From the NCBI GenBank assembly GCA_963840855.1, contig CAWJBB010000053.1, positions 20,996-84,995 of the forward strand: DNA of 64,000 nt, given 5' to 3'. The notes under the pieces are model-generated. The model saw only the letters and a program-made list of their open reading frames with translations, made no database searches and had not been told where the DNA came from. The stretch is from an uncultured delta proteobacterium (GTDB taxonomy: Bacteria; Desulfobacterota; Binatia; UBA9968). A program made the translations under genes and the position numbers. Positions 6,850 through 36,156 of this stretch are shown piece by piece. How positions within the stretch are numbered: position 1 is the first letter of the stretch; every line of letters begins with the position of its first letter.

Positions 6850-8016
6850 CTACCTGCGATAATTCCTCATGACCTCGTCGTGAAGAAGTTTCAGCGGGAT
6901 TTTCTTGGCGGCGGCGATCTTTCTCAGATCGTCGTATTCGGGCGCAGCGCGTTTTCTGCCGCCGGGAAGCTCGGCGACTTTGACCCGGACGTTGCCGTAG
7001 CGCGTCTTTACGTTTTCCAGCGAACGGTTGAGGATCACTCGGCCCACCGGGTAGAAGCGAACGCCGATGCTGGTGGTTTCATCCAGGAGGATGCGCGCTA
7101 GCTCGTCGCGGTCTTTAGGTTCGGCAATCACGCTGAGCAGTGTGGCCGGCCGGTTCTTCTTCATCTGCACCGGCGCGAGAAACACGTCGCGGGCGCCGGC
7201 GGCGAAGAGGCGGTCCATGACATAATCGTGGAACTGGGGATTCATGTCATCGATGTTGGTCTCGATGACGAGCATGGATTCTTCTTTCCATCCGGCTTCG
7301 CCGCCGGAACCTAGAACGACGCGAAAGAGATTGGGGCGATGAGCAAACTCTTTTTGCCCAGTGCCGTAACCGACGCTCTCGACGGTCATGGGCGAATGCG
7401 CGCCGAAGCTTTTGCCCAACGCGCTGACAATGGCCGCGCCGGTGGGCGTTACGGTTTCATCGTCGACATCGATTCCTTTGACGGGAAGTCCCTTGAGCAA
7501 TTCGAGCGTCGCTGGCCCTGGAACCGGCAGCGGACCATGCCGTGTCCGGGTAAGGCCGCGGCCCAACGGAATGGGCGAAAAATGAAATGCCTCGATCCTT
7601 AACTCATGCGCGGCCACGGCGGCGCCGACAATATCGACGATCGAATCGGTGGCGCCAACTTCGTGAAAGTGAACCTTGTCCACGGGAATACCGTGGACCT
7701 TGGCTTCGGCTTCGGCGAGGCGAGCAAATATCTTGAGCGCAGTGTCTTTGACATCGGGATGAAGCTTGCTGCGCCGGATCAGCCGTCGAATCTGGTTCCA
7801 CGACCGGGCCGGATCGTTTTGCCCGCAGACCACGTGAAATTGGACAGCGCGGATGCCGTGGACGGTTTTCTTCGAAGTCTTCAGGCCAAACCGCAGAACG
7901 GGAATTTTCTTAAGCTCGCTTTTCAACTTGGCAAGCGATAAACCGGCATCGAGAAGCGCCGCGACAAACATGTCGCCGCTGACGCCGCCGATCAGGTCTC
8001 CGTAGGCGATTTTCAC
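6850..8016 (-). CDS. larC: nickel-pincer cofactor biosynthesis protein LarC
   Basis: GVSGDM, VHFHEVGATDSIVD, HGPLPVPGPAT, TPTGAA, ETNIDD, MKKNRP, ETTSIGVR, PEYDD. Confidence 0.93.
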   Translation of the reverse strand: MKIAYGDLIGGVSGDMFVAALLDAGLSLAKLKSELKKIPVLRFGLKTSKKTVHGIRAVQFHVVCGQNDPARSWNQIRRLIRRSKLHPDVKDTALKIFARLAEAEAKVHGIPVDKVHFHEVGATDSIVDIVGAAVAAHELRIEAFHFSPIPLGRGLTRTRHGPLPVPGPATLELLKGLPVKGIDVDDETVTPTGAAIVSALGKSFGAHSPMTVESVGYGTGQKEFAHRPNLFRVVLGSGGEAGWKEESMLVIETNIDDMNPQFHDYVMDRLFAAGARDVFLAPVQMKKNRPATLLSVIAEPKDRDELARILLDETTSIGVRFYPVGRVILNRSLENVKTRYGNVRVKVAELPGGRKRAAPEYDDLRKIAAAKKIPLKLLHDEVMRNYRR

Positions 8017-9465: not shown

Positions 9466-9615
9466 GAAATCGTGGCGACGACTCTAGTCAAAAACCGCGG
9501 CGATGGCAAATTCCGCACCGAACGGCAGAGCAATCGCCGCTGGTTGATTCTCCATAATTTTTATGATTAAAAACAATCGTAGCCTATCTTGCTGGGATCA
9601 TTACGGAAATTCACG

Positions 9616-10002
9616 ATGTTGTTTGATTTCGCTAATGTATTTGTGTTTACCGCGCTGGGACTCGGCTTCGTCGGCGTCAACCTGCTGATCGGCAAATTGT
9701 TGCGCCCGTCGAATCCGCAGATCCGAAAATTATCGACCTATGAATGCGGCGAGCCTTCCACCGGCAGCGCGTGGGTCAATTTCAATATCCGTTTTTATCT
9801 CGTCGCTCTGGTTTTCATCATCTTCGAGGTTGAAATCGCCTTTCTTTTCCCGGTGGCCGTCGTCTTTCGCGGCCTAGTGGAAAGTGGGGACGGGTTATTG
9901 GCATTCGTGAAGGCATTTATCTTCGTCGGCACGCTGTTTCTTGGTCTGATCTATGCGTGGGTTAAAGGCGACTTGGAGTGGGTGAAAAAGGTCAAGATAT
10001 GA
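9616..10002 (+). CDS. nuoA: complex I subunit A
   Basis: [34 protein letters not shown]; ATG 9616 preferred. Confidence 0.95.
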
Positions 10003-10027
10003 TCTAGTGAGGGTCTTAGAAATTCCC

Positions 10028-10540
10028 ATGAAACCATTGATAAACTCTCTGCCAGAAACTGTTTTTACGACCAAGGTTGACGACTTGCTCAATTGGGGCA
10101 GGGCGTCGTCGCAATGGTATATGCTGTTTGGTTTGGCTTGCTGCGCCATCGAACTGATGCAGACCGGCGGACCGCGCGCCGATCTGGATCGCTTCGGCGC
10201 CGTACCGCGCGCCACGCCGCGCCAGTCCGATCTCATGATCGTCGCCGGTACTTTGACCTATAAAATGGCCAAGCGCACCAAGCTGCTTTACGATCAAATG
10301 CCGGACCCCAAATATGTGATCTCGATGGGCAGTTGCGCGAATTGCGGCGGCCTGTTTCAACTGGCCTACTCGGTCTGTAAGGGCGTCGATAAAATTGTTC
10401 CCGTGGACGTTTATGTTCCGGGGTGCCCGCCGCGGCCTGAAGCGCTCACCGAGGGGCTGCTCAGAATCCAAGATCTCATGATGCGCGAACGCTGGTTGGT
10501 GAAACCTTCCCGTCCGGCGACTGAAACGGCTGAAGCATAA
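10028..10540 (+). CDS. nuoB: complex I subunit B
   Basis: [28 protein letters not shown]. Confidence 0.96.
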
Positions 10541-10543
10541 GGG

Positions 10544-11050
10544 ATGGACGCTCAACAGATTTTCGCGCGCCTCGAACAACAGTTTCCCGGCAAGGTCCAC
10601 GATTTCAAGGGGGATGTTGCTGAGCCCTATTTGAAAGCGGATCGGACGGCCATCGTCGATGTCTGCCGGTTTCTGCGCGACGATAAGGATCTGAAATTCG
10701 AAGTTTTATCGGATCTGACCGCGCTGGATTGGCCCAAAGAGGAAATAATCCAGGTTGTTTACCACCTATTTACGTATACTCATCGACAGCAGATCGTGCT
10801 CAAAGTGGACTTGCCGCGGGACAATCCCACGATCGCCACGGTTGAAGGCATATGGAAAGTGGCAAACTGGTTTGAACGCGAAGTTTACGATCTTTTCGGC
10901 GTGATCTTCGAGGGCCATAGCGATCTTCGACGAATTATGTTGCCCGAAGACTGGGTCGGATATCCGCTGCGCAAAGACTATGTCGAGCAGGAAGAATACG
11001 ACGGCATCAGCACGCAGCGCGCGCCGCTGGTTGAGAAGCTGCTTCGCTAA
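10544..11050 (+). CDS. nuoC: complex I subunit C
   Basis: ANWFEREVYDLFG, GHSDLRRI, GYPLRKDY. Confidence 0.95.
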   Translation: MDAQQIFARLEQQFPGKVHDFKGDVAEPYLKADRTAIVDVCRFLRDDKDLKFEVLSDLTALDWPKEEIIQVVYHLFTYTHRQQIVLKVDLPRDNPTIATVEGIWKVANWFEREVYDLFGVIFEGHSDLRRIMLPEDWVGYPLRKDYVEQEEYDGISTQRAPLVEKLLR

Positions 11051-11062
11051 TCCCTTAAAGCT

Positions 11063-12205
11063 ATGAACGAGACCATACAAGAACAGGGCCCGGGTTTTTT
11101 CGCCGAGGAAATGACCATAAGCGTGGGGCCGCAGCACCCGAGCACCCACGGGGTGCTGCGCTTCGTCGTCAAAACCGACGGCGAAGTGATCAGCGAGGCG
11201 ATCCCGGACGTCGGCTATCTGCATCGTTCCATCGAAAAAATCGGCGAAAAGGTCACTTGGCACGGCTATGTGCCCTACACCGACCGCGCCGATTACCTGG
11301 CGGCGATGTTTGCCAATCAGGCGTTTTGCCTTGCCGCTGAAAAACTGGCGGGAACGGAGGTCACGCGCCGGGGGGAGTTTTGCCGGGTGATCGCTTGCGA
11401 GCTGAACCGTATCGCGAGCCATTTGATTTCGGTAGGCACCTTTGGCCAAGACATTGGCGCCATGACGCCGTTCGTGCATGCGCTGCGCGAACGCGAGACC
11501 ATTAATAATCTTATGGAAGAGATTTGCGGCGCCCGGCTGACCTACAATTATATTCGCATCGGCGGCGTGGGTTACGATATCGTACCGGGAACCTGTTCGC
11601 GCATCGTTGAATTTCTCGATCACTTCGAACCTATCGTCGATGAGTTCAATCGGCTACTGTCCGGCAACAAGATTTTTATCGAGCGGCTCGCCGGCGTCGC
11701 GGTGGTGAGCAAGGAAGACGCGCTTTCCTACAATTTAGTAGGTCCCAACCTGCGCGGCTCCGGAATCAAGTGGGACATCCGGCGCGACATTCCCTATTCA
11801 ATATATCCGGAATTGGATTTCGAAGTTCCAGTGGGCACGGCGCAGGTGGGCGTGCTCGGCGATAGTTTCGACCGGTACTGGGTGCGCATCTGTGAGTTGC
11901 AGGAGAGCTGTAAGATCCTGCGCCAATGTCTGAAAATGATGCCCAAGGGGCCGGCCATCGCCAAAGTGCCGCGCAAGTTTAGACCGCCGGTGGGCGAACG
12001 CTATGCCAGGGTGGAGGCGCCGCGCGGCGATATGGGCTTCTATGTGGTCAGCGACGGCAGTGAATATCCGTACCGGGTGCGCATTCGCACCGGTTCGTTT
12101 GCCGCTATGGCCATCATCGACAAACTCAGCAAAGGCATTATGGTCGCCGATCTGATCGCGCTCATCGGCAGTCTCGACGTCGATGCGCCGGAGATCGACC
12201 GCTAG
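11063..12205 (+). CDS. nuoD: complex I subunit D
   Basis: GPQHPSTHGVLR, GYLHRSIEK, DRADY, EAPRG, C-terminal EIDR; no NiFe CxxC ligands. Confidence 0.96.
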   Translation: MNETIQEQGPGFFAEEMTISVGPQHPSTHGVLRFVVKTDGEVISEAIPDVGYLHRSIEKIGEKVTWHGYVPYTDRADYLAAMFANQAFCLAAEKLAGTEVTRRGEFCRVIACELNRIASHLISVGTFGQDIGAMTPFVHALRERETINNLMEEICGARLTYNYIRIGGVGYDIVPGTCSRIVEFLDHFEPIVDEFNRLLSGNKIFIERLAGVAVVSKEDALSYNLVGPNLRGSGIKWDIRRDIPYSIYPELDFEVPVGTAQVGVLGDSFDRYWVRICELQESCKILRQCLKMMPKGPAIAKVPRKFRPPVGERYARVEAPRGDMGFYVVSDGSEYPYRVRIRTGSFAAMAIIDKLSKGIMVADLIALIGSLDVDAPEIDR

Positions 12206-12216
12206 TCATTGAAGGG

Positions 12217-12250
12217 GTTCAAAAGTTCAAGGTTCAAGGTTAGAGTTAGG
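12217..12250. repeat. GTTCAAG heptamer array, single arm, at the nuoD-nuoH junction
   Basis: gttcaaaa gttcaag gttcaag gttagag. Confidence 0.75.
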
Positions 12251-12276
12251 GATAGTGCTTACGCGGTTCATCACAC

Positions 12277-13473
12277 ATGCAAGCGTATATTGACCAGTTG
12301 ATCGAACAAGGTTACTTCACCGGCGCGCCCAAAGAAGTCGTTTACGCGGCTGCCATGGTGCTGATCGCTCTCGTCGTGCTCTCGGTGTTCGTGGCCCCCT
12401 TGGCCGGGGTTACCAGTTGGCTCGAACGGCGGGTCTGGGCCAGGATGCAGTCCCGCGTCGGGCCAAATCGCGTCGGGCCGCAAGGCATTCTCCAGTGGAT
12501 CGCCGACGGCATCAAGAATTTATTGAAAGAAGATTTGATTCCCTCGGCGGCGGACGCCAAACTTTTCTCGCTGGCTCCCTACGTCGTGTTCATGGGCTTT
12601 CTTTGCACGTTCGTGGTGATTCCTTTCGGCAGCCAGCTCATCGTCGCCGATCTTAACATCGGCATACTTTATATTCTCGCGGTCACCTCGCTCGTAGTGG
12701 TCGGCATTCTCATGGCCGGTTGGTCGTCGAACAACAAATGGTCGTTGCTCGGCGGCATGCGTTCCGCGGCGCAAATCGTGAGCTATGAGATTCCCGCGGG
12801 AGTTGCCATCCTGACCATTGTTTTTCTCGCCGGCACCCTGAGCATGCAAGGTATCATCGAGGCTCAAGGTTGGGCGCCCTGGGACTGGTTCTTGTTCAAC
12901 AATCCATTTACCTTCGCGGCATTTTTTCTCTACTTTACGGCGGCGTTGGCCGAGGGCAACCGCACGCCCTTCGACATTCCTGAAGCCGAATCGGAACTGG
13001 TCGCTGGCTACGTCACCGAGTACAGCGGCATGCGATTTTTGTTTTTCTTCTTCGCGGAGTGGGGCAATTTGTACGTGATCGGCGCCGTGGCAACGACGCT
13101 TTTTCTTGGCGGTTGGCAGGTTGCGCCGCTGGCGCTATTTGAGAATAACCCGGTTCTGTTGAACGTCGCGCAATTCATCACGTTTTTTCTCAAAGCGTAT
13201 TTCTGGGTTTTCGTCGCGATGTGGGTCAGGGCGACGTTGCCGCGCGTGCGCGTCGACCAGCTCATGGCGCTTTGTTGGAAATACATGGTGCCGCTGTCGT
13301 TCCTCTGCCTCATGGGAACCATTGGCTTTATGTTCATGCCGAAGGACATCCAGCGCATCGTCAGCGCGGCGATGTTCGGGCTCGGGGTCGCGCTGGTGAT
13401 CATTTTCTTTATGCGGGTCGTCTTTCAAATTCGCCACGCCAAGCCGGAGCTTTATTTCAAGCCGCACATTTAA
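12277..13473 (+). CDS. nuoH: complex I subunit H
   Basis: ERRVWARMQSRVGPNRVG, RTPFDIPEAESELVAG, TEYSG. Confidence 0.96.
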   Translation: MQAYIDQLIEQGYFTGAPKEVVYAAAMVLIALVVLSVFVAPLAGVTSWLERRVWARMQSRVGPNRVGPQGILQWIADGIKNLLKEDLIPSAADAKLFSLAPYVVFMGFLCTFVVIPFGSQLIVADLNIGILYILAVTSLVVVGILMAGWSSNNKWSLLGGMRSAAQIVSYEIPAGVAILTIVFLAGTLSMQGIIEAQGWAPWDWFLFNNPFTFAAFFLYFTAALAEGNRTPFDIPEAESELVAGYVTEYSGMRFLFFFFAEWGNLYVIGAVATTLFLGGWQVAPLALFENNPVLLNVAQFITFFLKAYFWVFVAMWVRATLPRVRVDQLMALCWKYMVPLSFLCLMGTIGFMFMPKDIQRIVSAAMFGLGVALVIIFFMRVVFQIRHAKPELYFKPHI

Positions 13474-13486
13474 TAACTGAGGATTT

Positions 13487-14044
13487 ATGACCGTTACCAG
13501 TTACGTAAGAGATATTACCGACACGGTGAAATCGGTTTTCGAGGGAATGTCGATCACGTTTTCCCACCTGGCGCGCCGTCCGATGACGATTCAGTATCCG
13601 GATAAGATCCCGGTGCCGATTCAGGAGACGCTGCCACTGCGCTACCGCGGCATTCTCGAAGTCGATATGGATATCTGTACCGGCTGCCTGGCTTGTGAAA
13701 GAGATTGTCCGATCACCTGCATCACCATCGGCATCGAGATGGACAAAGAAACCAAGCAGCGCCAGTTTACCCATTTCGACATTGACGTCTGTAAATGCAT
13801 GTATTGCGGCTTGTGCTCGGAGGCCTGCCCGACGGGCGCGATCCGCCATTCGCAGGAGTTTGAAGGCGCAAGCTACAACCCGGCGGGTTTGGTACGCCAC
13901 TTCGTGCCGCAACCCCAGCCCTTGTATAAACCGAAAAAGGGCGGGGAAACAGAGCCGAAATTAGTCGCAAAGGTGGACATTGGGCTAAAATATCTGGATG
14001 AATTCGCCACGCCGGATGGCGGAGGTGGCGCGGAGGAGAAGTAA
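13487..14044 (+). CDS. nuoI: complex I subunit I
   Basis: TIQYP and two CxxCxxCxxxCP ferredoxin motifs. Confidence 0.95.
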   Translation: MTVTSYVRDITDTVKSVFEGMSITFSHLARRPMTIQYPDKIPVPIQETLPLRYRGILEVDMDICTGCLACERDCPITCITIGIEMDKETKQRQFTHFDIDVCKCMYCGLCSEACPTGAIRHSQEFEGASYNPAGLVRHFVPQPQPLYKPKKGGETEPKLVAKVDIGLKYLDEFATPDGGGGAEEK

Positions 14045-14153
14045 GCGGCGCAAAAAAGGGCGTTCTTCCCCTTGATCCAGAACGATTCTTCCGGTAAATG
14101 AGCCGGAAGCCCTTCAACACTTTCGGGTTTCCACGACAGATTTCTAAGGTAGC

Positions 14154-14654
14154 ATGGAAATATCTACGGTCGTTTTTTATCTGGTTGCGGTAATCACGGT
14201 GGGTTCCGCCGTGGTGGTCGCCGTTTCCCACAATATTATTTACTCGGCGTTTTCCCTGCTCGGGACCTTCATGGGGGCAGCGGGGATCTACATTTTTCTT
14301 GGCGCCGACTTTGTCGCGGCGGTGCAAGTTCTGATTTACGTCGGCGGTATTCTCGTCCTGATACTCTTCGCCGTGATGCTGACTCATCGCATCACCGATG
14401 TTGAAATTACCAACCGCGCCGCCGGACGGATTCCCGCGCTGATAATCGTCGGCGTGTTTTTCGCCTTGCTTGTGCAGACGGTCAGGGAAACGTCGTGGGT
14501 CAAGGTCAAGGAGGTCGCCTACCAGCCCACCACCGCGAAGATCGGCGATTTGTTCCTGGAGCAATATCTGCTGCCGTTTGAGCTTGCCTCCCTGGTGCTT
14601 CTGGCGGCCATGATCGGCGCCGTCGTATTGTCCCGCAAGGAGATCAAAGAGTAG
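14154..14654 (+). CDS. nuoJ: complex I subunit J
   Basis: QVLIYVGGILVL, LLPFELAS. Confidence 0.95.
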   Translation: MEISTVVFYLVAVITVGSAVVVAVSHNIIYSAFSLLGTFMGAAGIYIFLGADFVAAVQVLIYVGGILVLILFAVMLTHRITDVEITNRAAGRIPALIIVGVFFALLVQTVRETSWVKVKEVAYQPTTAKIGDLFLEQYLLPFELASLVLLAAMIGAVVLSRKEIKE

Positions 14655-14656
14655 CC

Positions 14657-14980
14657 ATGATCGCCGGCTTTTCGCCCCACGAGCTGTCGTCCTATCTCGT
14701 CATCGGCGCCATTCTTTTTTGTCTGGGGCTGTTTACGGTTTTGACGCGGCGCAACGCCATCAGCGTGCTCATGGGCGTGGAGTTGATACTTAACAGCGCC
14801 AATATTAACTATGTCGCGTTCTCTCACTTCGGTAGCGGGAATCTGGACGGGCAGTTGTACGCCATATTCGTGATCATGCTCGCCGCCGCCGAAGCGGCGG
14901 TCGGCTTGGCCATCGTTCTCGCCATTTTCCAGATCTTCCATACCATCGACGTCGAGGCCGCGGAGACGCTGAAGGAGTAG
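14657..14980 (+). CDS. nuoK: complex I subunit K
   Basis: RRNAISVLMGVELILN, AAAEAAVGLA. Confidence 0.96.
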   Translation: MIAGFSPHELSSYLVIGAILFCLGLFTVLTRRNAISVLMGVELILNSANINYVAFSHFGSGNLDGQLYAIFVIMLAAAEAAVGLAIVLAIFQIFHTIDVEAAETLKE

Positions 14981-14983
14981 CAA

Positions 14984-15068
14984 CGTGTTCGTGATGCGTG
15001 TTCGTGCTCGGATATTCCGGATGCTTCGTTCGATTTCTACGAGCACGAGCCACGAGCACGAGCCACGA
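14984..15068. repeat. inverted 6-7-mer array pair (CGTGYT / CGAGCA-type) at the nuoK-nuoL junction
   Basis: cgtgttcgtgatgcgtgttcgtgctcg ... cgagcacgagccacgagcacgagccacga. Confidence 0.8.
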
Positions 15069-15074
15069 TGAATT

Positions 15075-17108
15075 ATGGATAATCCGATACAGACTGACTA
15101 CCTGCGCTGGATCGTCTTCCTGCCGTTGATCGGCGCGATCATCAACGGCCTGTTGGGCGCGAAGATTCAAAAAGCATGGGGCGAGGGCGCCATCAGCTTC
15201 CTGGCTTGCGCGCCCGTGGTTTTCGCTTTCGGCTTGGCCTTGAACGCCTTTTTCACGCTGACAGGGTTAGAGCCGGAAAAGCGCTTCCTGATCGACAACC
15301 TCTTTCCCTGGATCCATCTCGGCACGCTGAACGTCGACATGGCTTTCCTGGTCGATCCGCTTTCGGCCGTGATGATCCTGGTCGTCACCGGCATCGGCGG
15401 CCTGATTCACATCTACGCTACCGGCTACATGCACGAAGACAAAGCTTTTTGGCGCTTCTTTGCCTTTCTCAATCTGTTCACGGCGGCGATGCTCACGCTG
15501 GTGTTGGGCGACAGCTTGCTGCTGCTATTCGTCGGTTGGGAAGGCGTGGGACTCTGCTCCTACGCCTTGATCGGCTTTTGGTATACCGACCACAACAACG
15601 CCCGCGCCGGCAACAAAGCCTTTATCGTCAACCGCGTCGGCGACTTTGGTTTTGTCCTTGGCATGTTTCTCCTCTTCTGGTCCCTCGACGCGCAAGGCCA
15701 CGGCACGTTGACGATCCGTGAAATGGTGAAATGGGCGCCGACGATCAAAGATACGATGCTGTGGGGCCTGCCGGTTATTACGCTGGCAACTCTTTTTCTC
15801 TTTGTTGGCGCCACCGGCAAGTCAGCGCAGATCCCGCTGTTTGTCTGGCTGCCCGACGCCATGGCCGGGCCGACGCCGGTGAGCGCGCTGATCCACGCGG
15901 CGACGATGGTCACCGCCGGCGTCTACATGACCGCGCGCATGAACGTCTTTTTCTCGATGGCCCCCGATACTTTGAACGTAATCGCGATCATCGGCGTAGC
16001 CACCGCTCTGGTGGCTGCCACCATCGCGCTGACGCAAAACGACATTAAGAAAGTGCTCGCCTATTCGACCGTGAGCCAGCTTGGCTACATGTTCATCGGC
16101 ATCGGCGTCGGCGGCTACGCCGCGGCTATCTTCCATCTGATGACCCATGCTTTCTTCAAAGCTTGCCTGTTCCTCGGCGCCGGCAGCGTTATCCACGCGA
16201 TGCACCATGAACAGGACATGCGCAAAATGGGCGGGCTCAAGCAATATATGCCGGTGACCTATATGACTTTCTTGATCTCGGTCATCGCCATCGCCGGGTT
16301 TCCACCCTTTGCCGGCTTTTTTTCCAAAGACGAGATCCTCTGGCTGGCTTACTCCGGTCATCACGAAATCATTTGGTTACTGGCGCTGTGCGGCGCGGGG
16401 ATGACGGCTTTCTACATGTTCCGCCAGCTTTTCATGGTGTTCTTCGGCGATTGCCGCGCCGATCATCACACCCGGGAGCACCTCCATGAGTCGCCCAGCG
16501 TCATGACCCTCCCGCTGGTCGTCCTAGCGGCCGGCGCCGTGGTAGCGGGCTGGATCGGACTCCCTGCCGTCTTCGGCGGCAGCCAATTCGCGCATTGGCT
16601 GGAGCCGGTGATTGCGCATGGCGAGCACCAGGGTTCTCACGCCGTGGAGTTGGGCCTGATGGGAATTTCTATCGCGGTGGCCGCCGCCGGCGTGATTTTC
16701 GCCTATCTGATGTATTATCGCGCCGCGTTATCGCCGGAACCTTTCGTCAATCTCGCCGGCGGTTTCTTCTACCGTTTGTTCGACCGCAAGTGGTACTTCG
16801 ATGAAATTTACCAGTTTGTTTTCGTCAACGGCACGTTGGTGCTGGCGCGCCTCGGCGCTCTGTTCGATCAATATATTATTGACGGAATCGTCGACGGTTC
16901 GGCGTCCCTCACTCGGTTTACCTCATGGCTCAACGGTCTGTTCGATGACTACATCATTGATGGCATCGTCAACGCGATCGCCAACAGCACGTTCTGGACG
17001 GGCAACCGGTTTCGCAGAATTCAGACCGGTAATATCAACAGTTACCTCTATGGAATTCTGATTGCGATCGCCCTTGCCGTCATCGTCAAGATACGTTACT
17101 GGAGCTGA
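15075..17108 (+). CDS. nuoL: complex I subunit L with extended lateral helix
   Basis: GWEGVG, GKSAQIP, WLPDAMAGPTPVSALIHAATMV, THAFFKA; duplicated LFDxYIIDGIV. Confidence 0.96.
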   Translation: MDNPIQTDYLRWIVFLPLIGAIINGLLGAKIQKAWGEGAISFLACAPVVFAFGLALNAFFTLTGLEPEKRFLIDNLFPWIHLGTLNVDMAFLVDPLSAVMILVVTGIGGLIHIYATGYMHEDKAFWRFFAFLNLFTAAMLTLVLGDSLLLLFVGWEGVGLCSYALIGFWYTDHNNARAGNKAFIVNRVGDFGFVLGMFLLFWSLDAQGHGTLTIREMVKWAPTIKDTMLWGLPVITLATLFLFVGATGKSAQIPLFVWLPDAMAGPTPVSALIHAATMVTAGVYMTARMNVFFSMAPDTLNVIAIIGVATALVAATIALTQNDIKKVLAYSTVSQLGYMFIGIGVGGYAAAIFHLMTHAFFKACLFLGAGSVIHAMHHEQDMRKMGGLKQYMPVTYMTFLISVIAIAGFPPFAGFFSKDEILWLAYSGHHEIIWLLALCGAGMTAFYMFRQLFMVFFGDCRADHHTREHLHESPSVMTLPLVVLAAGAVVAGWIGLPAVFGGSQFAHWLEPVIAHGEHQGSHAVELGLMGISIAVAAAGVIFAYLMYYRAALSPEPFVNLAGGFFYRLFDRKWYFDEIYQFVFVNGTLVLARLGALFDQYIIDGIVDGSASLTRFTSWLNGLFDDYIIDGIVNAIANSTFWTGNRFRRIQTGNINSYLYGILIAIALAVIVKIRYWS

Positions 17109-17129
17109 TTTTTAGGGAGCAGCTAGAAG

Positions 17130-18650
17130 ATGGATAACATTCTCACTTACATGACTTTTGTCCCTGTCGCCGGGGCTGTTCTCGTGTTGTTGCTGCCGAG
17201 CAATAATCATAACTTGATCCGTTGGGTTTCCGCTCTGGTCACGGTGCCGCCGCTGGCGATGGCCTGCTGGCTGTTCGCCAACTTCGATTCATCCAAGCCC
17301 GGTTTGCAATTCGTCGAAAAGTACCAGTGGATCCCGGCCTACAACATCAGCTACTACATGGGCATAGATGGGCTCAGCATCTCCATGGTGCTGCTCACCG
17401 CGCTGTTGTGTTTCCTTTGCATCTTCGCCTCCTGGGGCATCGAAAAAGGGGTCAAGGGCTACTTCGCGCTCTTTCTCATGCTCGATGCCGGCATGATGGG
17501 CGTGTTTTGCGCGCTGGACTTTTTTCTCTTCTATATTTTCTGGGAAGTGATGCTCTTGCCGATGTATTTTCTCATCGGCATCTGGGGCGGGCCGCGACGC
17601 GAGTATGCTGCCATCAAGTTTTTTCTTTACACGCTGTTCGGCAGCGTGTTGATGCTGCTCGCCATTTTGGCGCTCTATTTCAGCAGCGAACCGCATACTT
17701 TCGACATGACTGTGTTGATCGCCCAGGCCGACAAGTACGGCACAAAAACGTTGCCCATATGGCCTTTCGATCAGTGGGGTTGGGGCTTTCAGCATGTCAT
17801 CTGGATGGCGCTGTTTATCGGCTTCGCCATCAAGATTCCGGCCTTCCCATTTCATACCTGGCTGCCCGACGCCCACGTCGAGGCGCCCACGGCGGTGTCC
17901 GTCATCCTGGCCGGCGTGCTCCTCAAGATGGGCACCTACGGCATTCTCCGCATCAATTATCCGATGCTGCCCGTGGCAACGGCGGATTTGGCCTACTGGT
18001 TTCTCGGCGCTCTGGGCGCCTGGAACATTATCTACGGGGCGCTTTGCGCCATGGCGCAGAAAGATCTGAAAAAGCTCGTGGCCTATTCCAGCGTCAGCCA
18101 CATGGGTTACGTCATGCTCGGCATGGCGAGTTTCACGACCCAGGGCATCAACGGCGCGGTGCTGCAGATGTTCAATCACGGCACCATCACCGGCATGCTC
18201 TTTCTCCTGGTCGGCGTAATATACGACCGCGCGCACCATAGGGAGATCGAGGGGTTCGGCGGTCTGGCGGCGATCATGCCGCTTTATACGGGTGTTACCG
18301 CGCTAGCCTTCTTTGCGTCTATGGGCTTGCCGGGACTCTCGGGATTCATATCCGAAGTGCTGGTGCTGCTGGGCACCTGGCAGAAATATCCGGTTCTGAC
18401 GATCATTGGCGCCGCCGGCGTGGTTTTAACCGCCGGTTATCTGCTCTGGACCATCCAGCGCGTTTACCTCGGTCCGCCCAATGAAAAATACTTGAAGCTG
18501 TCGGAGATCAATGGCCGGGAGATGTTTACGTTAGTACCCTTGGGCTTAATCGTCATTGTTCTCGGCATATACCCGAGCCTCGTGCTGGATTTGCTGCGCG
18601 CCTCCCTGGATCATATCAACGAGATTGTCTTGCCGCATCTGCACAGTTAA
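17130..18650 (+). CDS. nuoM: complex I subunit M
   Basis: FWEVMLLP, PFHTWLPDAHVEAPT, LLKMG, AYSSVSHMG. Confidence 0.96.
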   Translation: MDNILTYMTFVPVAGAVLVLLLPSNNHNLIRWVSALVTVPPLAMACWLFANFDSSKPGLQFVEKYQWIPAYNISYYMGIDGLSISMVLLTALLCFLCIFASWGIEKGVKGYFALFLMLDAGMMGVFCALDFFLFYIFWEVMLLPMYFLIGIWGGPRREYAAIKFFLYTLFGSVLMLLAILALYFSSEPHTFDMTVLIAQADKYGTKTLPIWPFDQWGWGFQHVIWMALFIGFAIKIPAFPFHTWLPDAHVEAPTAVSVILAGVLLKMGTYGILRINYPMLPVATADLAYWFLGALGAWNIIYGALCAMAQKDLKKLVAYSSVSHMGYVMLGMASFTTQGINGAVLQMFNHGTITGMLFLLVGVIYDRAHHREIEGFGGLAAIMPLYTGVTALAFFASMGLPGLSGFISEVLVLLGTWQKYPVLTIIGAAGVVLTAGYLLWTIQRVYLGPPNEKYLKLSEINGREMFTLVPLGLIVIVLGIYPSLVLDLLRASLDHINEIVLPHLHS

Positions 18651-18653
18651 ATC

Positions 18654-20138
18654 ATGGACCTTAAAAATCTTGCCAGCTTAAGCTTCTTTTGGCCGGAGCT
18701 CATCCTGTTCGGCACCATTCTCTTAATCAGCATGCTCGATCTGGTGATGCGTAATGGGCGCGCGTTGGCGTCGGTTGCCATCCTTGGCTGCGCAGCATCC
18801 CTCCTCGCTACTTTCGATCTTTATAGCGCCCAGCCCGGCTGGTTATTTTACCGAATGATCGTGCTCGACAACTTCGCTTTGTTTTTCAAAGTTGTCGCCC
18901 TGGCGGCAATTATCCTGACTATCTGGATGTCCCTCGGCAGCAAAGAGATCGATCAGGTTCACCAGGGCGAATACTATACATTGCTCTTGACCTGTGGCCT
19001 GGGAATGATTTTCATGGCTTCGGCGAGCAATTTACTGACTGCCTATCTGTCTTTGGAGCTGGTCAGTCTAACTTCATATGTTTTGACTGGATTCCTGCCC
19101 CACAGCCGCCGCTCCAGCGAAGCGGCGTTAAAATATCTCATTTACGGCGGCGTTGCTTCGGGCACGATGATCTACGGCATGAGCTGGATTTTCGGCATGA
19201 CGGGGAGCCTGGACTACGCCGCGATTCAAGTGGCGCTGGCGCAGAATCAAGTGAGCAAGGTCGCCTTGTTCATGGCCTTCGTATTTATAATGGCCGGCTT
19301 TGGTTACAAGATCGTCTTTGTGCCATTTCACATGTGGTCGCCCGATGTCTACCAGGGCGCGCCGACCCCTTTCACGGCTTTTCTTTCGGTGGCATCCAAT
19401 GCGGCAGGCATAGCCATCATGATCCGCTTTTTCTTTCCCGGCGTGTCGAACATGGGCGCCGACGGCCAATGGACCACCGCGGCGGGAGTGGAGTGGCCCC
19501 ATGTCTTGCTCTTCGTCAGCATGATCACCATGACCGTCGGCAATCTCAGCGCTTTGAATCAGAAAAATTTAAAACGCATGCTCGCATACTCCGGCATCGC
19601 CCACGCCGGCTACATGCTCATGGGGCTTGCGGTACTGACCAATGACGGTCTTCAGGCGATTCTTTTCTACGTCGTCGTCTATCTCATCATGAATCTTGGC
19701 GCGTTTCTCGTCGTGGTCATGATCGCCAACGCCACGGGCAACGAAGACATCGATAGTTACCGGGGCCTGGCTTGGCGCGGCGCGGTGGTTCCCGCGGTCT
19801 GTCTGGCGGTATTTCTCTTTTCGTTGACCGGTCTGCCGCCCTTTGCCGGATTTATCGGAAAATTTTTTCTATTCGCCGCCGTGCTCAAAGCAGGCGGTGT
19901 CTTTGTCATCCTCGCCCTGGTGGCGGTGGCCAACAGCGTCGTTTCGCTCTATTACTACGCGAAAGTGGTGAAAGTGATGTTCCTGGACACCCCTGACCCG
20001 AGCGACAAGGCCGTTGCCGTTGATGGAGGCAATTTCACTCTGCTCCTGCCGCTGACAGTGCTCACCGTGGTTTTCGGAATTTACTTCTATCCCCTGAGCC
20101 ACTACGCTAGCCAGTCGCTCCGCTTCTTCATGAAGTAG
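18654..20138 (+). CDS. nuoN: complex I subunit N
   Basis: EAALKY, PFHMWSPDVYQGAPTP, KRMLAYSGIAHAGY, SLTGLPP. Confidence 0.96.
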   Translation: MDLKNLASLSFFWPELILFGTILLISMLDLVMRNGRALASVAILGCAASLLATFDLYSAQPGWLFYRMIVLDNFALFFKVVALAAIILTIWMSLGSKEIDQVHQGEYYTLLLTCGLGMIFMASASNLLTAYLSLELVSLTSYVLTGFLPHSRRSSEAALKYLIYGGVASGTMIYGMSWIFGMTGSLDYAAIQVALAQNQVSKVALFMAFVFIMAGFGYKIVFVPFHMWSPDVYQGAPTPFTAFLSVASNAAGIAIMIRFFFPGVSNMGADGQWTTAAGVEWPHVLLFVSMITMTVGNLSALNQKNLKRMLAYSGIAHAGYMLMGLAVLTNDGLQAILFYVVVYLIMNLGAFLVVVMIANATGNEDIDSYRGLAWRGAVVPAVCLAVFLFSLTGLPPFAGFIGKFFLFAAVLKAGGVFVILALVAVANSVVSLYYYAKVVKVMFLDTPDPSDKAVAVDGGNFTLLLPLTVLTVVFGIYFYPLSHYASQSLRFFMK

Positions 20139-20159
20139 CGACTTGTGTTGCGAACAACC

Positions 20160-20319
20160 AAGGTGGCGAAGACCAAACGCGCCATCGTTCTTGACGAAGG
20201 CCCGATGCTTGGCGGAGTCTGCGCGGAAATCGCCGCACTCATCCAGGAAAATCTTTTCTCCGACTTGAAGGGGCCGGTCCTGCGCGTCGGCGCGCAGCCC
20301 ATTCCTCCTCCGCACAGTG
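20160..20319 (+). pseudogene. C-terminal fragment of a 2-oxoacid dehydrogenase E1 beta (transketolase C-terminal domain)
   Basis: VAKTKRAIVLDEG...GVCAEIAALIQENLFSDLKGPVLRVG; N-terminal domain and final helix absent. Confidence 0.75.
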
Positions 20320-21099: not shown

Positions 21100-21501
21100 A
21101 TGGCACCTATGAGTTTGCGTTGGCTCGGATATCTTGCAGGTCTGGCATACTGGATCGCCCTTAGCGGTGCGGCTCAGGCCCAAACCGTTGCGGAAGGCAA
21201 AAGTCTTTACACTAGTTACTGTGCGGCCTGCCACGGCGATCAGGGTAAGGGGGATGGCGTCGCCGCTCGTTCCTTGCCGGTGAAACCCGCCGATCACACT
21301 AATGGCGCCGTTATGAATCAGTTTTCGGATAAGTTCTTGACGGACATCATTACCAAGGGTGGCAGTGCCGTGAACAAATCGGCTTTTATGCCCGCCTGGG
21401 GAAGCTCGCTGAACAATAAACAGGTTTCCGATATCGTCGCCTACATGAGGAGCATTGCCAATCCGCCCTATAATAAGGCGGAAAAAACCGGTGTAAAATA
21501 G
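21100..21501 (+). CDS. periplasmic monoheme cytochrome c
   Basis: signal peptide, CAACH, distal MPAW. Confidence 0.92.
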   Translation: MAPMSLRWLGYLAGLAYWIALSGAAQAQTVAEGKSLYTSYCAACHGDQGKGDGVAARSLPVKPADHTNGAVMNQFSDKFLTDIITKGGSAVNKSAFMPAWGSSLNNKQVSDIVAYMRSIANPPYNKAEKTGVK

Positions 21502-21548: not shown

Positions 21549-21607
21549 GGGCGCATCCAACCTGCCCCTAGGGCATGTCAATCTACGTTCTATTTCAGGA
21601 GGGTTAT

Positions 21608-21898
21608 ATGGCTGTAAAGTTTCGTCCCCTACATGATAGGGTGATTGTAAAGCGCATCCAGGAAGAGGAAAAAACCGCCGGGGGAATCTTTATTCCCGAC
21701 ACCGCCAAAGAAAAGCCCCAGGAGGGCAAGGTCGTTGCGGTGGGCCCCGGCAAGCACGAAGACGGAAAAGTCATTCCATTGGGGGTGAAAGCGGGCGACA
21801 AGATCCTCTTCGGAAAGTATTCGGGCGCGGAAATCAAACTAGACGGCGAGGAACATCTGATCATGCGGGAAGATGACATCCTCGGAATCATTGAATAA
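21608..21898 (+). CDS. groES: co-chaperonin GroES
   Basis: [24 protein letters not shown]; GGAGG RBS before ATG 21608. Confidence 0.97.
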
Positions 21899-23536
<1,638 letters not shown>

Positions 23537-34473: not shown

Positions 34474-36156
34474 ATGAACGTCCGACACACGCGTTTGATC
34501 ACGGGTTTCACCTTGCTTACCTACCTGGCGACTCATTTGCTCAATCACGCGCTTGGTTTGATCTCGCTGGAAGCCATGGAAATCGGGCGCCTATGGTTTC
34601 TGGCGTTTTGGCGAAACCCTCTGGCAACCGCGGCGCTCTATGCCTCGTTCCTCGTGCATTTTGGCCTGGCGCTCTGGTCGCTATACCAACGTCATCATTT
34701 GCGAATGCCTCTCTGGGAAGCGCTCCAGCTCAGCCTCGGCCTTTGTATTCCGCTTTTACTTGCTGCGCACTTTGCCGGCACTCGGTTGGCGCACGGCTGG
34801 TATGGCGTCGAGGACAGCTACTCGAAAATCGTTCTTACCTTGTGGAAACTAAGCCCAATCCATGGTTGGAGACAGTCGATTCTCATCCTGATCGCCTGGA
34901 TTCATGGCTGCATCGGATTTCATTTCTGGTTGCGGCTGCGTCCCTGGTACTCCCGTTACGCGCAAACTTTTTTTGCCCTAGCATTGCTTCTGCCGGTGCT
35001 GGCCCTGCTTGGGTTTGCCCAAGCCGGCCGTGAGATTGATCACTTGATTGATCGAGATCCAGGTTGGATCGAACGGACAGAGCGAGCGTCTAAGTCTCTT
35101 GGCTCGGGACAAGGACAGGATCTGGTAACCGTTCGCGATGGAATCATATATGGGTTTTGGTTGTGTCTTGGCGGCGTGTGGATTGCACGGACCATCCGGC
35201 ACACCTATCAGAGACGCCGGAGAATTCGGGTCATCTATCCGGGAAACCGCGAGGTCCAAGTGCCGCGCGGCTTCAGCGTTCTTGAAGCGAGCCGTTTCGC
35301 GCGCATTGCCCACGCTTCCGTTTGCGGCGGCCGCGGCCGCTGCTCGACCTGCCGGGTGCGCGTGGTGCCCCCTATGTCCGCGTTGCCGCCGCCGAGCTCC
35401 GCGGAACAAAGAGTCTTGCAGCGGGTGGGCGCGCCGCCCAATGTGCGGCTGGCTTGCCAGCTTCGCCCAACCGCGGATCTGTCGGTTATCCCGTTGTTGC
35501 CCGCGCATGCAGCGGCGAGCGACGGTTACGCGCAACCGGCTTATCTTGCCGGCCAGGAGCGCGCCATCGCCGTGTTGTTCGCAGACTTGCGGACCTTCAC
35601 CGGTATCGCGGAACGAAAACTGCCCTACGATCTGGTGTTTCTCTTGAACAGCTACTTTGACGCTGTGGGTAATGCGATCACAAGCGGCGGTGGCATCGTC
35701 GACAAATTTATCGGCGATGGGGTTATGGCGCTGTTCGGAGTCGAGACCACTCTTGAAATGGCTTGCCGGCAAGCGTTAGCCGCGGCCCATGTCATGGTCA
35801 GAGAAGTCGAGGTTCTCAGCCAAAAGCTCGCGGTGGAGTTGCCTGTGCCACTGAAAATCGGTATCGGGATACATAGCGGCCCGGCGATTGTAGGGCGGAT
35901 GGGCTTTGGCTCTAACGTTCACCTCACCGCCATCGGCGATACCGTCAATGTTGCAAGCCGCCTGCAAGATTTGACCAAGGAATATGGTTGCCAGCTGGTG
36001 ATCTCGGAGCAGGTGGCAATGCACGCCGGTCTCGATCCATCGATCTTGCCGCGCCATGAGCTGACCGTCAGAAATCGAGTGGAGCCGCTGGCTATCTTCG
36101 TGGTCGACGAAATTGAATCAATCGTGAAAGAGTTGAGCGCCATGGATAAAAGATGA
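34474..36156 (+). CDS. CyaC-like adenylate cyclase (His-bearing membrane anchor, 2Fe-2S ferredoxin domain, class III cyclase)
   Basis: transmembrane His residues; CGGRGRCSTC...RLACQ; FADLRTFT, DKFIGD, GDTVNVASRL. Confidence 0.88.
   Translation: MNVRHTRLITGFTLLTYLATHLLNHALGLISLEAMEIGRLWFLAFWRNPLATAALYASFLVHFGLALWSLYQRHHLRMPLWEALQLSLGLCIPLLLAAHFAGTRLAHGWYGVEDSYSKIVLTLWKLSPIHGWRQSILILIAWIHGCIGFHFWLRLRPWYSRYAQTFFALALLLPVLALLGFAQAGREIDHLIDRDPGWIERTERASKSLGSGQGQDLVTVRDGIIYGFWLCLGGVWIARTIRHTYQRRRRIRVIYPGNREVQVPRGFSVLEASRFARIAHASVCGGRGRCSTCRVRVVPPMSALPPPSSAEQRVLQRVGAPPNVRLACQLRPTADLSVIPLLPAHAAASDGYAQPAYLAGQERAIAVLFADLRTFTGIAERKLPYDLVFLLNSYFDAVGNAITSGGGIVDKFIGDGVMALFGVETTLEMACRQALAAAHVMVREVEVLSQKLAVELPVPLKIGIGIHSGPAIVGRMGFGSNVHLTAIGDTVNVASRLQDLTKEYGCQLVISEQVAMHAGLDPSILPRHELTVRNRVEPLAIFVVDEIESIVKELSAMDKR

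Follow-up and report, generated by a model that had tools for sequence, protein, structure and literature searches.

A duplicated kink unit in the NuoL lateral helix of a Binatia complex I operon with a single nuoM gene

Introduction

A form of complex I named 2M complex I was reportedly described in Nitrospira and other lineages by Chadwick et al. (2018, ISME J 12:2668). Its gene clusters have two nuoM genes, and its NuoL subunit has an insertion of about 26 amino acids (aa) in the lateral helix (HL), the 26-aa figure being given for the Nitrospira 2M NuoL in the passages of Yu et al. (2022, PMC9040806) that treat this trait. Here we describe the nuo operon of an uncultured delta proteobacterium (Desulfobacterota; Binatia; UBA9968), located in a stretch of 64,000 nucleotides (nt) (assembly GCA_963840855.1, contig CAWJBB010000053.1, positions 20,996 to 84,995, forward strand) that is referred to below as the window. 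The NuoL of this operon has an insert of about that length at the same place in its HL; unlike the 2M clusters, the operon has one nuoM gene. Two other traits of Nitrospirales 2M complexes are given in passages of PMC12342949: nuoC and nuoD are separate genes, as they are in the window, whose cluster is also without nuoEFG, and the complexes are thought to run in reverse towards ferredoxin. A complex I with duplicated nuoM is mentioned for A. capsulatum in PMC11636273, and Binatota genomes are said in PMC8262859 to encode complexes I, II, alternative complex III (ACIII) and IV.

The closest described counterparts are Complex_I_1 and Complex_I_2 of the Manganitrophaceae, which combine a 26-aa HL insertion with canonical gene content; the passages of Yu et al. 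(2022, mBio, PMC9040806) that describe them leave undecided whether they accept an extra subunit or are in transition. These complexes, likened here to the window through that description and not by sequence, pose the same puzzle in another lineage (Nitrospirota as against Binatia). The same passages report a 26-aa HL insertion in MrpD2 of Manganitrophaceae Complex_I_3, and more than three antiporter-like subunits in this complex and in the Green complex I of rhizobia. In these two complexes, additional genes, for MrpD-like subunits and two NuoM, account for the additional positions; the window has no extra gene. Besides Yu et al. (2022), no report of an HL insertion with single-nuoM gene content was found in the literature outside subscription journals. 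The arrangement found in the window is already known in kind through Complex_I_1 and Complex_I_2, and is not special to it.

The lateral helix carries an old tandem duplication

The nuoL gene (15075..17108, + strand) encodes a 677-aa protein (P0001) with the Pfam domains Proton_antipo_N (PF00662), _M (PF00361) and _C (PF01010). It scores 742.6 bits against the NCBIfam model TIGR01974 (cutoff 407.5) and has the C-terminal extension of NuoL. In the translation, the HL region from KWYFDE to QTG spans aa 572-652 (16788..17030, +) and ends in a C-terminal transmembrane (TM) anchor, TM16 (aa 654-676; 17034..17102, +), which is a helix in the predicted model; the region aligns to the HL and TM16 of solved NuoL chains. 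Canonical NuoL, Nqo12 and ND5 (E. coli 3RKO, T. thermophilus 4HE8, M. smegmatis 8E9G) share with the window protein the core fold, the KWYFDE start, the kink motif, the QTG motif and the TM16 anchor, and differ from it in having a single kink unit. In the window protein, the stretches LFDQYIIDGIVDG, from nt 16860 (aa 596), and LFDDYIIDGIVNA, from nt 16938 (aa 622), repeat with a period of 78 nt or 26 aa. They begin two successive units on the + strand, unit 1, LFDQYIIDGIVDGSASLTRFTSWLNG (aa 596-621; 16860..16937), and unit 2, LFDDYIIDGIVNAIANSTFWTGNRFR (aa 622-647; 16938..17015), each of which aligns to the same canonical VDxxxVDG kink motif; MAFFT sets the canonical motif opposite unit 2.

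The two units are identical at 13 of 26 residues and 41 of 78 bases, and over their first 13 codons at 10 of 13 residues and 30 of 39 bases. As 17 of the 37 base differences fall at third codon positions, the duplication is old and is not an echo of the assembly. The best 13-aa self-match of NuoL has 10 identities, compared with 6-7, and once 9, in 30 shuffles of the protein. Comparison with other NuoL proteins gave the same picture. In a phmmer search, residues 593-617 and 623-676 of the query both aligned to one and the same stretch of M. smegmatis NuoL (8e9g_L), starting at residue 574, and a profile of the long-helix C-terminus matched T. elongatus NdhF1, P. denitrificans NuoL and chloroplast NdhF (9grx_F) twice each, over overlapping residues. 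In a thirteen-row MAFFT alignment of NuoL C-termini, the four canonical rows carry one clean gap that equals one unit, and from the YFDE anchor to QTG the window protein measures 77 aa, compared with 51-56 aa in canonical proteins. Alignment with canonical and two-nuoM sets likewise gave a net gain of 26 aa over single-M canonical NuoL. The original prediction, which had noticed a 78-nt-period repeat with diverged codons and gave a KWYFDE-QTG length of about 80 aa where about 55 aa is usual, was thus right in its coordinates and its figures. These data establish that the 78-nt repeat arose by tandem duplication of a single structural unit of the HL, and that the duplication is old and conserved.

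The duplicated unit consists of a D-x4-DG-x-VN kink and the helical stretch after it. Its counterpart in E. coli is the site D563, P564, L565, N566, and passages of Belevich et al. (2011, PMC3274701) place the HL contact with NuoM at the kink P564, L565, N566, the residues after P564 being nearest NuoM in structure 3RKO; in the same passages P552 lies between L and M, P572 lies between M and N, and TM16 is truncated at Y590. With the kink placed in this way, one unit corresponds to the NuoM-contact kink plus the following helix, NuoM spanning about 20 helix residues. As helix, 26 further residues would measure about 39 Å, approximately the width of a single antiporter-like subunit.

Across 16 diverse long-helix NuoL proteins, the C-terminal 100 columns align without gaps, and both motif copies are conserved (D29, D34, G35, V37, N38 and D55, D60, G61, V63, N64). 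The closest homologs of the window NuoL are 82-99% identical to it and, among the 120 listed, are named Candidatus Binatia or 'Deltaproteobacteria bacterium' where a name is given; their sources annotate them simply as 'subunit L'. All 120 keep the 77-aa spacing. The gap-free motif copies together with this constant spacing indicate selection on the exact length, and the duplication of the kink unit is real, old and selected.

HL length was also measured by regular expression in the window NuoL and the 150 nearest 50%-identity cluster representatives. Of these 151 rows, 64 have 51-56 aa and 28, the window included, have 77-78 aa, 59 remaining unclassified. A 26-position unit hidden Markov model found 0 copies in 63 rows, 1 copy in 58, 2 copies in 29 and 3 copies in 1, with many single canonical motifs missed; both counts are lower bounds for the long class. 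HL lengths are thus stepped by about 26 aa (51-56, 77-80 and 103-105 aa), and the QTG-x4-Y motif ahead of TM16 is conserved in all three helix classes, the QTG/TM16 end being alike across them. The longest step was seen in two proteins of the representative search, P0215 (683 aa) and P0204 (768 aa), which have three tandem HL units and YFDE-to-QTG distances of 103 and 105 aa; their two extra units would correspond to five antiporter-size positions.

Gene content of the operon

Open reading frames (ORFs) and Pfam matches define eleven contiguous genes, nuoA-B-C-D-H-I-J-K-L-M-N, at 9589-20138 on the + strand. The first eight are nuoA (9589..10002; Oxidored_q4, E 1.9e-33; its start, that of the longest ORF, is putative), nuoB (10007..10540; Oxidored_q6, E 1.1e-28), nuoC (10544..11050; Complex1_30kDa, E 1.3e-45), which is separate from nuoD (11063..12205; Complex1_49kDa, E 4.6e-89), nuoH (12277..13473; NADHdh, E 8.5e-114), nuoI (13487..14044; Fer4 family matches), nuoJ (14154..14654; Oxidored_q3, E 3.2e-38) and nuoK (14657..14980; Oxidored_q2, E 1.2e-25). 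Behind nuoL lie nuoM (17130..18650; 506 aa, P0002; TIGR01972, 602 bits, cutoff 263.8) and nuoN (18654..20138; 494 aa, P0003; TIGR01770, 390 bits, cutoff 332.6). The spacing between nuoD and nuoH is 72 nt, which leaves no room for nuoEFG in the cluster, and no Pfam match of NuoE, NuoF or NuoG type was found in the scanned ORFs of the 64-kb window (20 + 34 ORFs).

The window has one TIGR01972 protein and hence a sole nuoM. No other antiporter-like (Proton_antipo_M) ORF was found among the scanned ORFs of at least 150 aa judged to be genes (20 + 34), and a tblastn search with NuoM over both strands of the window matched nuoL, nuoM and nuoN only. Pfam, NCBIfam and tblastn thus agree with the earlier statement that nuoL, nuoM and nuoN are contiguous single copies. 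As nuoL and nuoM are separated by 21 nt, and nuoM and nuoN by 3 nt, there is no pseudogene between them. The window therefore combines a 26-aa HL insertion with single nuoL, nuoM and nuoN genes in canonical order, in an 11-gene operon.

Long lateral helices with one nuoM are widespread

One genome per GTDB species was scanned with the long-helix C-terminal alignment and the pattern [NH]K[YW][YF][VFI]DExY. At least 599 stretches matched, 407 were confirmed, and the best 80 of the 407 were taken as loci (L numbers below). As the pattern does not match the window's own RKWYFDEIY, close Binatia relatives are under-sampled and only one, L005, was fetched. The antiporter-like ORFs of the loci were classed by phmmer with the window NuoL, NuoM and NuoN; 16 were checked by NCBIfam, and both strands were searched by tblastn.

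A long HL (77-85 aa) is followed by one nuoM and then nuoN in 41 loci, the window not counted. They belong to Ignavibacteriota, Bacteroidota, Balneolota, Myxococcota (including Minicystis rosea), Acidobacteriota, Planctomycetota, Poribacteria, Zixibacteria, Hyphomicrobiales, Verrucomicrobiota and one Binatia; named or cultured carriers of the long-helix form include Melioribacter sp. (L010) and M. rosea DSM 24000 (L011), and complete genomes with operons of this kind include CP016211.1, CP054675.1, OY970334.1 and OY970380.1. In seven others (L008, L015, L020, L021, L027, L050, L079), a long HL and one nuoM are seen and the contig ends before the next gene. Two nuoM genes follow a long HL in 11 loci: four Nitrospiraceae (L052, L056, L061, L080; L056 confirmed by NCBIfam), five of an Anaerolineae group, L040 and L026. 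A canonical HL (51-53 aa) with one nuoM was found in 11 loci, and none of these has two nuoM.

Among readable long-helix loci, one nuoM is thus found in 41 of 52 and two nuoM in 11 of 52, and all 11 two-nuoM loci have a long HL of 77-82 aa, the same class as that of the one-nuoM loci. In this sample, the long helix is needed for two nuoM genes but does not indicate two nuoM genes. The view that the insert is a 2M signature therefore holds for its site and length, which are those of the two-nuoM operons of Nitrospiraceae, Anaerolineae and others; it does not hold as a diagnosis, since most readable long-helix loci have a single nuoM. All 30 long-helix one-nuoM loci in which both nuoD and nuoH are visible have a gap of at most 444 nt between them and are 11-gene operons like that of the window, compared with gaps of 1.8-4.4 kb in the four canonical-helix loci that show both genes. 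Taken together, these results identify the window NuoL as an ordinary member of a widespread long-helix class, mostly with one nuoM and mostly without nuoEFG.

Some loci depart from the common order. In L037, L038, L043 and L044 (Acidobacteriota), the order is nuoC-D-I-J-K-L-M-N-H, with nuoH behind nuoN. An unrelated 698-aa ORF that is not antiporter-like lies between nuoM and nuoN in L014 (6857-8993), and another, of about 209 aa and also not antiporter-like, between nuoL and nuoM in L039 (10324-11194); the 870-nt gap of L039 holds this ORF only and no nuoM remnant. In the Terriglobales/Acidobacteriaceae loci L064, L070 and L077, the HL is about 85 aa by eye, with about 8 more residues in the first segment, and EWG or QWG stands in place of QTG. 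The four Nitrospiraceae loci have 2.8-2.9 kb between nuoD and nuoI without a match to the window NuoH, a stretch that presumably holds a divergent nuoH and about 1.6 kb of something else. In L046, L047, L048 and L053 (Acidobacteriota, Udaeobacter metagenome-assembled genomes (MAGs)), a second, convergent nuoM and nuoN are present on the minus strand at about 15500-20300, at most 10 kb downstream of the long-helix operon; in L047 and L053, nuoL is visible in the second set as well. These genomes thus have two nuo clusters tail to tail.

nuoM number changes without a change of helix length

A NuoL tree was built from the core with the HL region cut out (71 of 81 rows; IQ-TREE quick search, LG+C20, support by the Shimodaira-Hasegawa-like approximate likelihood ratio test (SH-aLRT) only). 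L023, L033, L055 and L069 (frameshifted or ambiguous), L044 and L049 (frameshifted C-termini) and L029, L030, L031 and L054 (NuoL missing or shorter than 560 aa) were left out. The window and the Binatia locus L005 are sisters (support 100) and fall within an 8-row clade of Binatia, Myxococcota and Holophagaceae (SH-aLRT 98), all of them long-helix and, as far as visible, one-nuoM. The two-nuoM rows are scattered: the Nitrospiraceae adjoin long-helix one-nuoM Thermoanaerobaculia (support 91), L026 falls in an unresolved group of long-helix one-nuoM rows, the Anaerolineae group also contains the one-nuoM L039, and L040 adjoins the canonical L071 (support 98). On this tree, HL class requires at least 5 changes, nuoM number at least 4, and the two states combined at least 8; with 8 against 5 + 4, HL class and nuoM number changed together no more than once. 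The number of nuoM genes has thus changed repeatedly without a change in HL length.

In a NuoM tree (83 rows, LG+G4, quick search), for which the software flagged long-branch joins at the distal copies, the two NuoM of L040 are sisters (support 96). They are 80% identical, which points to a young duplication; the identity between the first and second NuoM (M1-M2) is 52% in L026, 35-38% in the Anaerolineae group and 29-33% in the Nitrospiraceae. L040 (7394-13997 of the Anaerolineae MAG DAOUDK010000040.1) has the order nuoL-M-M-N and an HL of 79 aa, and groups with the canonical 52-aa NuoL of L071; a two-nuoM complex seems to have arisen here recently and independently.

A possible link between likeness of the two kink motifs and likeness of the NuoM copies

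The two motif copies of each protein were compared by their best 15-aa match, as BLOSUM score and as identical residues of 15. The 49 one-nuoM long-helix rows have a median of 37 (7/15), and the window has the highest value among one-nuoM rows, 56 (11/15). The two-nuoM loci follow the identity of their NuoM copies: 55 (10/15) in L040, 49 (9/15) in L026, and 13-27 (2-5/15) where M1-M2 identity is 38% or less (29-38%); canonical rows, taken as the chance level, give 8 (3/15). The Nitrospiraceae share the 77-aa spacing of the window, and in our alignment their second motif copy is degenerate, with 2-5 identical residues as against 11 in the window. This comparison suggests that the two kink motifs resemble each other most in loci with a single kind of NuoM, or with two that are still similar, as expected if each motif copy co-evolves with the NuoM that it touches. 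The trend is only suggestive because it spans about four independent two-nuoM lineages.

Predicted structure of NuoL

An AlphaFold2 model of NuoL, based on a 70-row alignment, has a predicted local distance difference test (pLDDT) value of 89.8 and a predicted TM-score (pTM) of 0.86. In the model, helix 572-624 runs unbroken through unit 1, a break at 625-629 falls in the motif of unit 2, and helix 630-650 is followed by a break at QTG (651-653) and by the TM16 helix; over about aa 611-660 pLDDT is 46-64 (10-residue block means). The extra segment is thus predicted, with low certainty, to be helical rather than a loop. The Foldseek matches of the model in the PDB were all NuoL, ND5 or NdhF chains (TM-score 0.77-0.82). 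The root-mean-square deviation (rmsd) on superposition was 2.4-2.9 Å for the core only (595-633 columns) and about 13 Å over the whole length (663-699 columns), from which the helix end and TM16 of the model would lie, as a rough estimate, some tens of Å off their canonical place. No PDB chain matched both HL units in one stretch by sequence profile. A complex prediction with two NuoM copies (aa 1-500) gave a score of 0.00 and a mark of 0.42, which counts neither for nor against binding. A longer HL arising from a shifted TM15 was ruled out, since one- and two-nuoM loci have homologous NuoL cores and fall in the same HL class.

Antiporter-like positions along the long helix

How many antiporter-like subunits line a long HL beside a single nuoM gene can be read in several ways. 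Tentatively, and with a confidence somewhat short of even, we favour an arm with four antiporter positions laid out by the HL, two of them taken by NuoM (L-M-M-N). The HL would act as a ruler for four antiporter-like positions; in single-nuoM operons, the same NuoM polypeptide would occupy two adjacent positions, one under each kink motif, and TM16 would dock on NuoN as usual. Such an arm would pump a fifth proton per two electrons. The two-nuoM operons would be later gene duplications by which both positions were split between paralogues. We lean towards this arrangement because both HL units match the single canonical NuoM-contact motif, because two-nuoM operons never use a short helix and never exceed the same long one, and because HL length is stepped by one unit. 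It is also consistent with several flips of nuoM number on an unchanged helix, with a motif likeness that tracks M1-M2 likeness, with a QTG/TM16 end that is alike in all classes, and with a model that keeps the extra unit helical instead of looping it out (~13 Å over the whole length as against 2.4-2.9 Å for the core). The 30 of 30 long-helix one-nuoM loci without room for nuoEFG point the same way, for a donor of lower potential than NADH could pay for the fifth proton. Applied to the whole long-helix class, which spans at least nine phyla and has mostly 11-gene operons, the proposal would mean one nuoM product in two positions and five protons pumped throughout, repeated later duplications behind the two-nuoM operons, and five positions in the three-unit P0215 and P0204; we put this wider form forward with the same reserve.

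Several points weigh against the L-M-M-N arm. The stoichiometry is deduced from genes and alignments, and no complex I relative is known in which one antiporter-like gene product takes two positions. A NuoM that associates with itself raises the problem of runaway M-M-M assembly. The search for nuoM spanned 64 kb, and a second nuoM could lie elsewhere in the genome. The genome scan is biased towards query-like sequences, and the independent two-nuoM events are only about four (Nitrospiraceae, the Anaerolineae group, L026 and L040), so that independent points are few. The NuoL tree comes from a quick search with SH-aLRT support only and has several relevant forks below 95. Finally, model pLDDT is below 50 at aa 623-630 and 649-653, exactly over unit 2.

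An ordinary L-M-N arm with three antiporter-like subunits, in which the extra HL unit has some other function, is a serious possibility that we judge rather doubtful. NuoN may be the partner of the second kink, in which case TM16 would dock beyond its usual site, near NuoJ, NuoK, NuoA or NuoH; alternatively, the unit may form a bulge or hold a protein whose gene lies outside the operon. On this view, the long helix would be a pre-adaptation, allowing but not requiring a second NuoM once the gene is duplicated. One L, one M and one N are indeed what the window and most readable long-helix loci encode, known complex I relatives as a rule have one gene for each position, and the model is unsure about unit 2. 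The company that the long helix keeps with nuoEFG-less operons could likewise be a lineage trait unrelated to the number of M. However, an HL that already reaches 39 Å past L-M-N should need yet another unit for a second NuoM, and the two-nuoM loci stay at 77-82 aa in 11 of 11 cases. The second kink motif also still resembles the first, whereas NuoN shares only about 25% identity with NuoM, and the sameness of TM16 and QTG across classes argues against a new docking site.

A second antiporter-like subunit supplied in trans, that is, a nuoM paralogue elsewhere (for instance in a second nuo operon) that gives L-M-M'-N, is unlikely. Such paralogues do exist, as the second nuoM-nuoN or nuoL-nuoM-nuoN sets of L046, L047, L048 and L053 show. 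However, these sets include nuoN, and nuoL in two of four, and so look like second operons and not like an orphan nuoM, and the 64 kb of the window hold neither a second nuoM nor a remnant of one. That the arrangement should have been kept over at least nine phyla without the paralogue joining the operon seems improbable, and the near-identical kink motifs of the window fit one kind of partner.

Very improbable is a relic, a helix still at its former length after the recent loss of one nuoM from a two-nuoM ancestor. Such a loss can happen, as L039 (Anaerolineae) has one nuoM and lies inside a two-nuoM clade in both the NuoL and NuoM trees. For the window, however, the original prediction's suggestion of a recent loss is contradicted: a long helix with one nuoM is also found in L005 and, as far as visible, throughout the 8-row clade, both motif copies are conserved, the close homologs listed keep the exact 77-aa spacing at the protein level (120/120), and the 21- and 3-nt spacers hold no remnant. 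An artefact of assembly or sequencing can be dismissed outright, for the reading frame is unbroken, 37 of 78 bases differ between the units, and independent sources yield a protein of 677-680 aa in 117 of the 120 listed clusters, with 667 aa in one of the rest and 675 aa in two.

Implications

If one NuoM fills two positions, pumping stoichiometry would be unreadable from gene content and readable from the length of the NuoL lateral helix, a feature that routine annotation ignores. Estimates of energy yield would change for Binatia, Acidobacteriota, Myxococcota, Planctomycetota, Ignavibacteriota, Bacteroidota and other soil and sediment phyla, five-proton relatives of complex I would sit in operons that look canonical, and the repeated evolution of four-pump complexes would be explained. 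If the arm is L-M-N, the conserved extra unit would mark a new contact or partner in nuoEFG-less enzymes. In either case, a long helix beside one nuoM raises a directly testable question, the subunit stoichiometry of a widespread enzyme class.

Surroundings of the operon

Upstream of the nuo operon, on the opposite strand, lies a gene for a LarC-type nickel insertion protein (6850-8016, -). Its other neighbours are a cytochrome c gene and, downstream, groES-groEL (21100-21501, +, and 21575-23536, +, among the listed neighbours). Further along, at 34474-36156 (+), the window encodes a 560-aa protein in which a 2Fe-2S ferredoxin domain is joined to an adenylate/guanylate cyclase domain.

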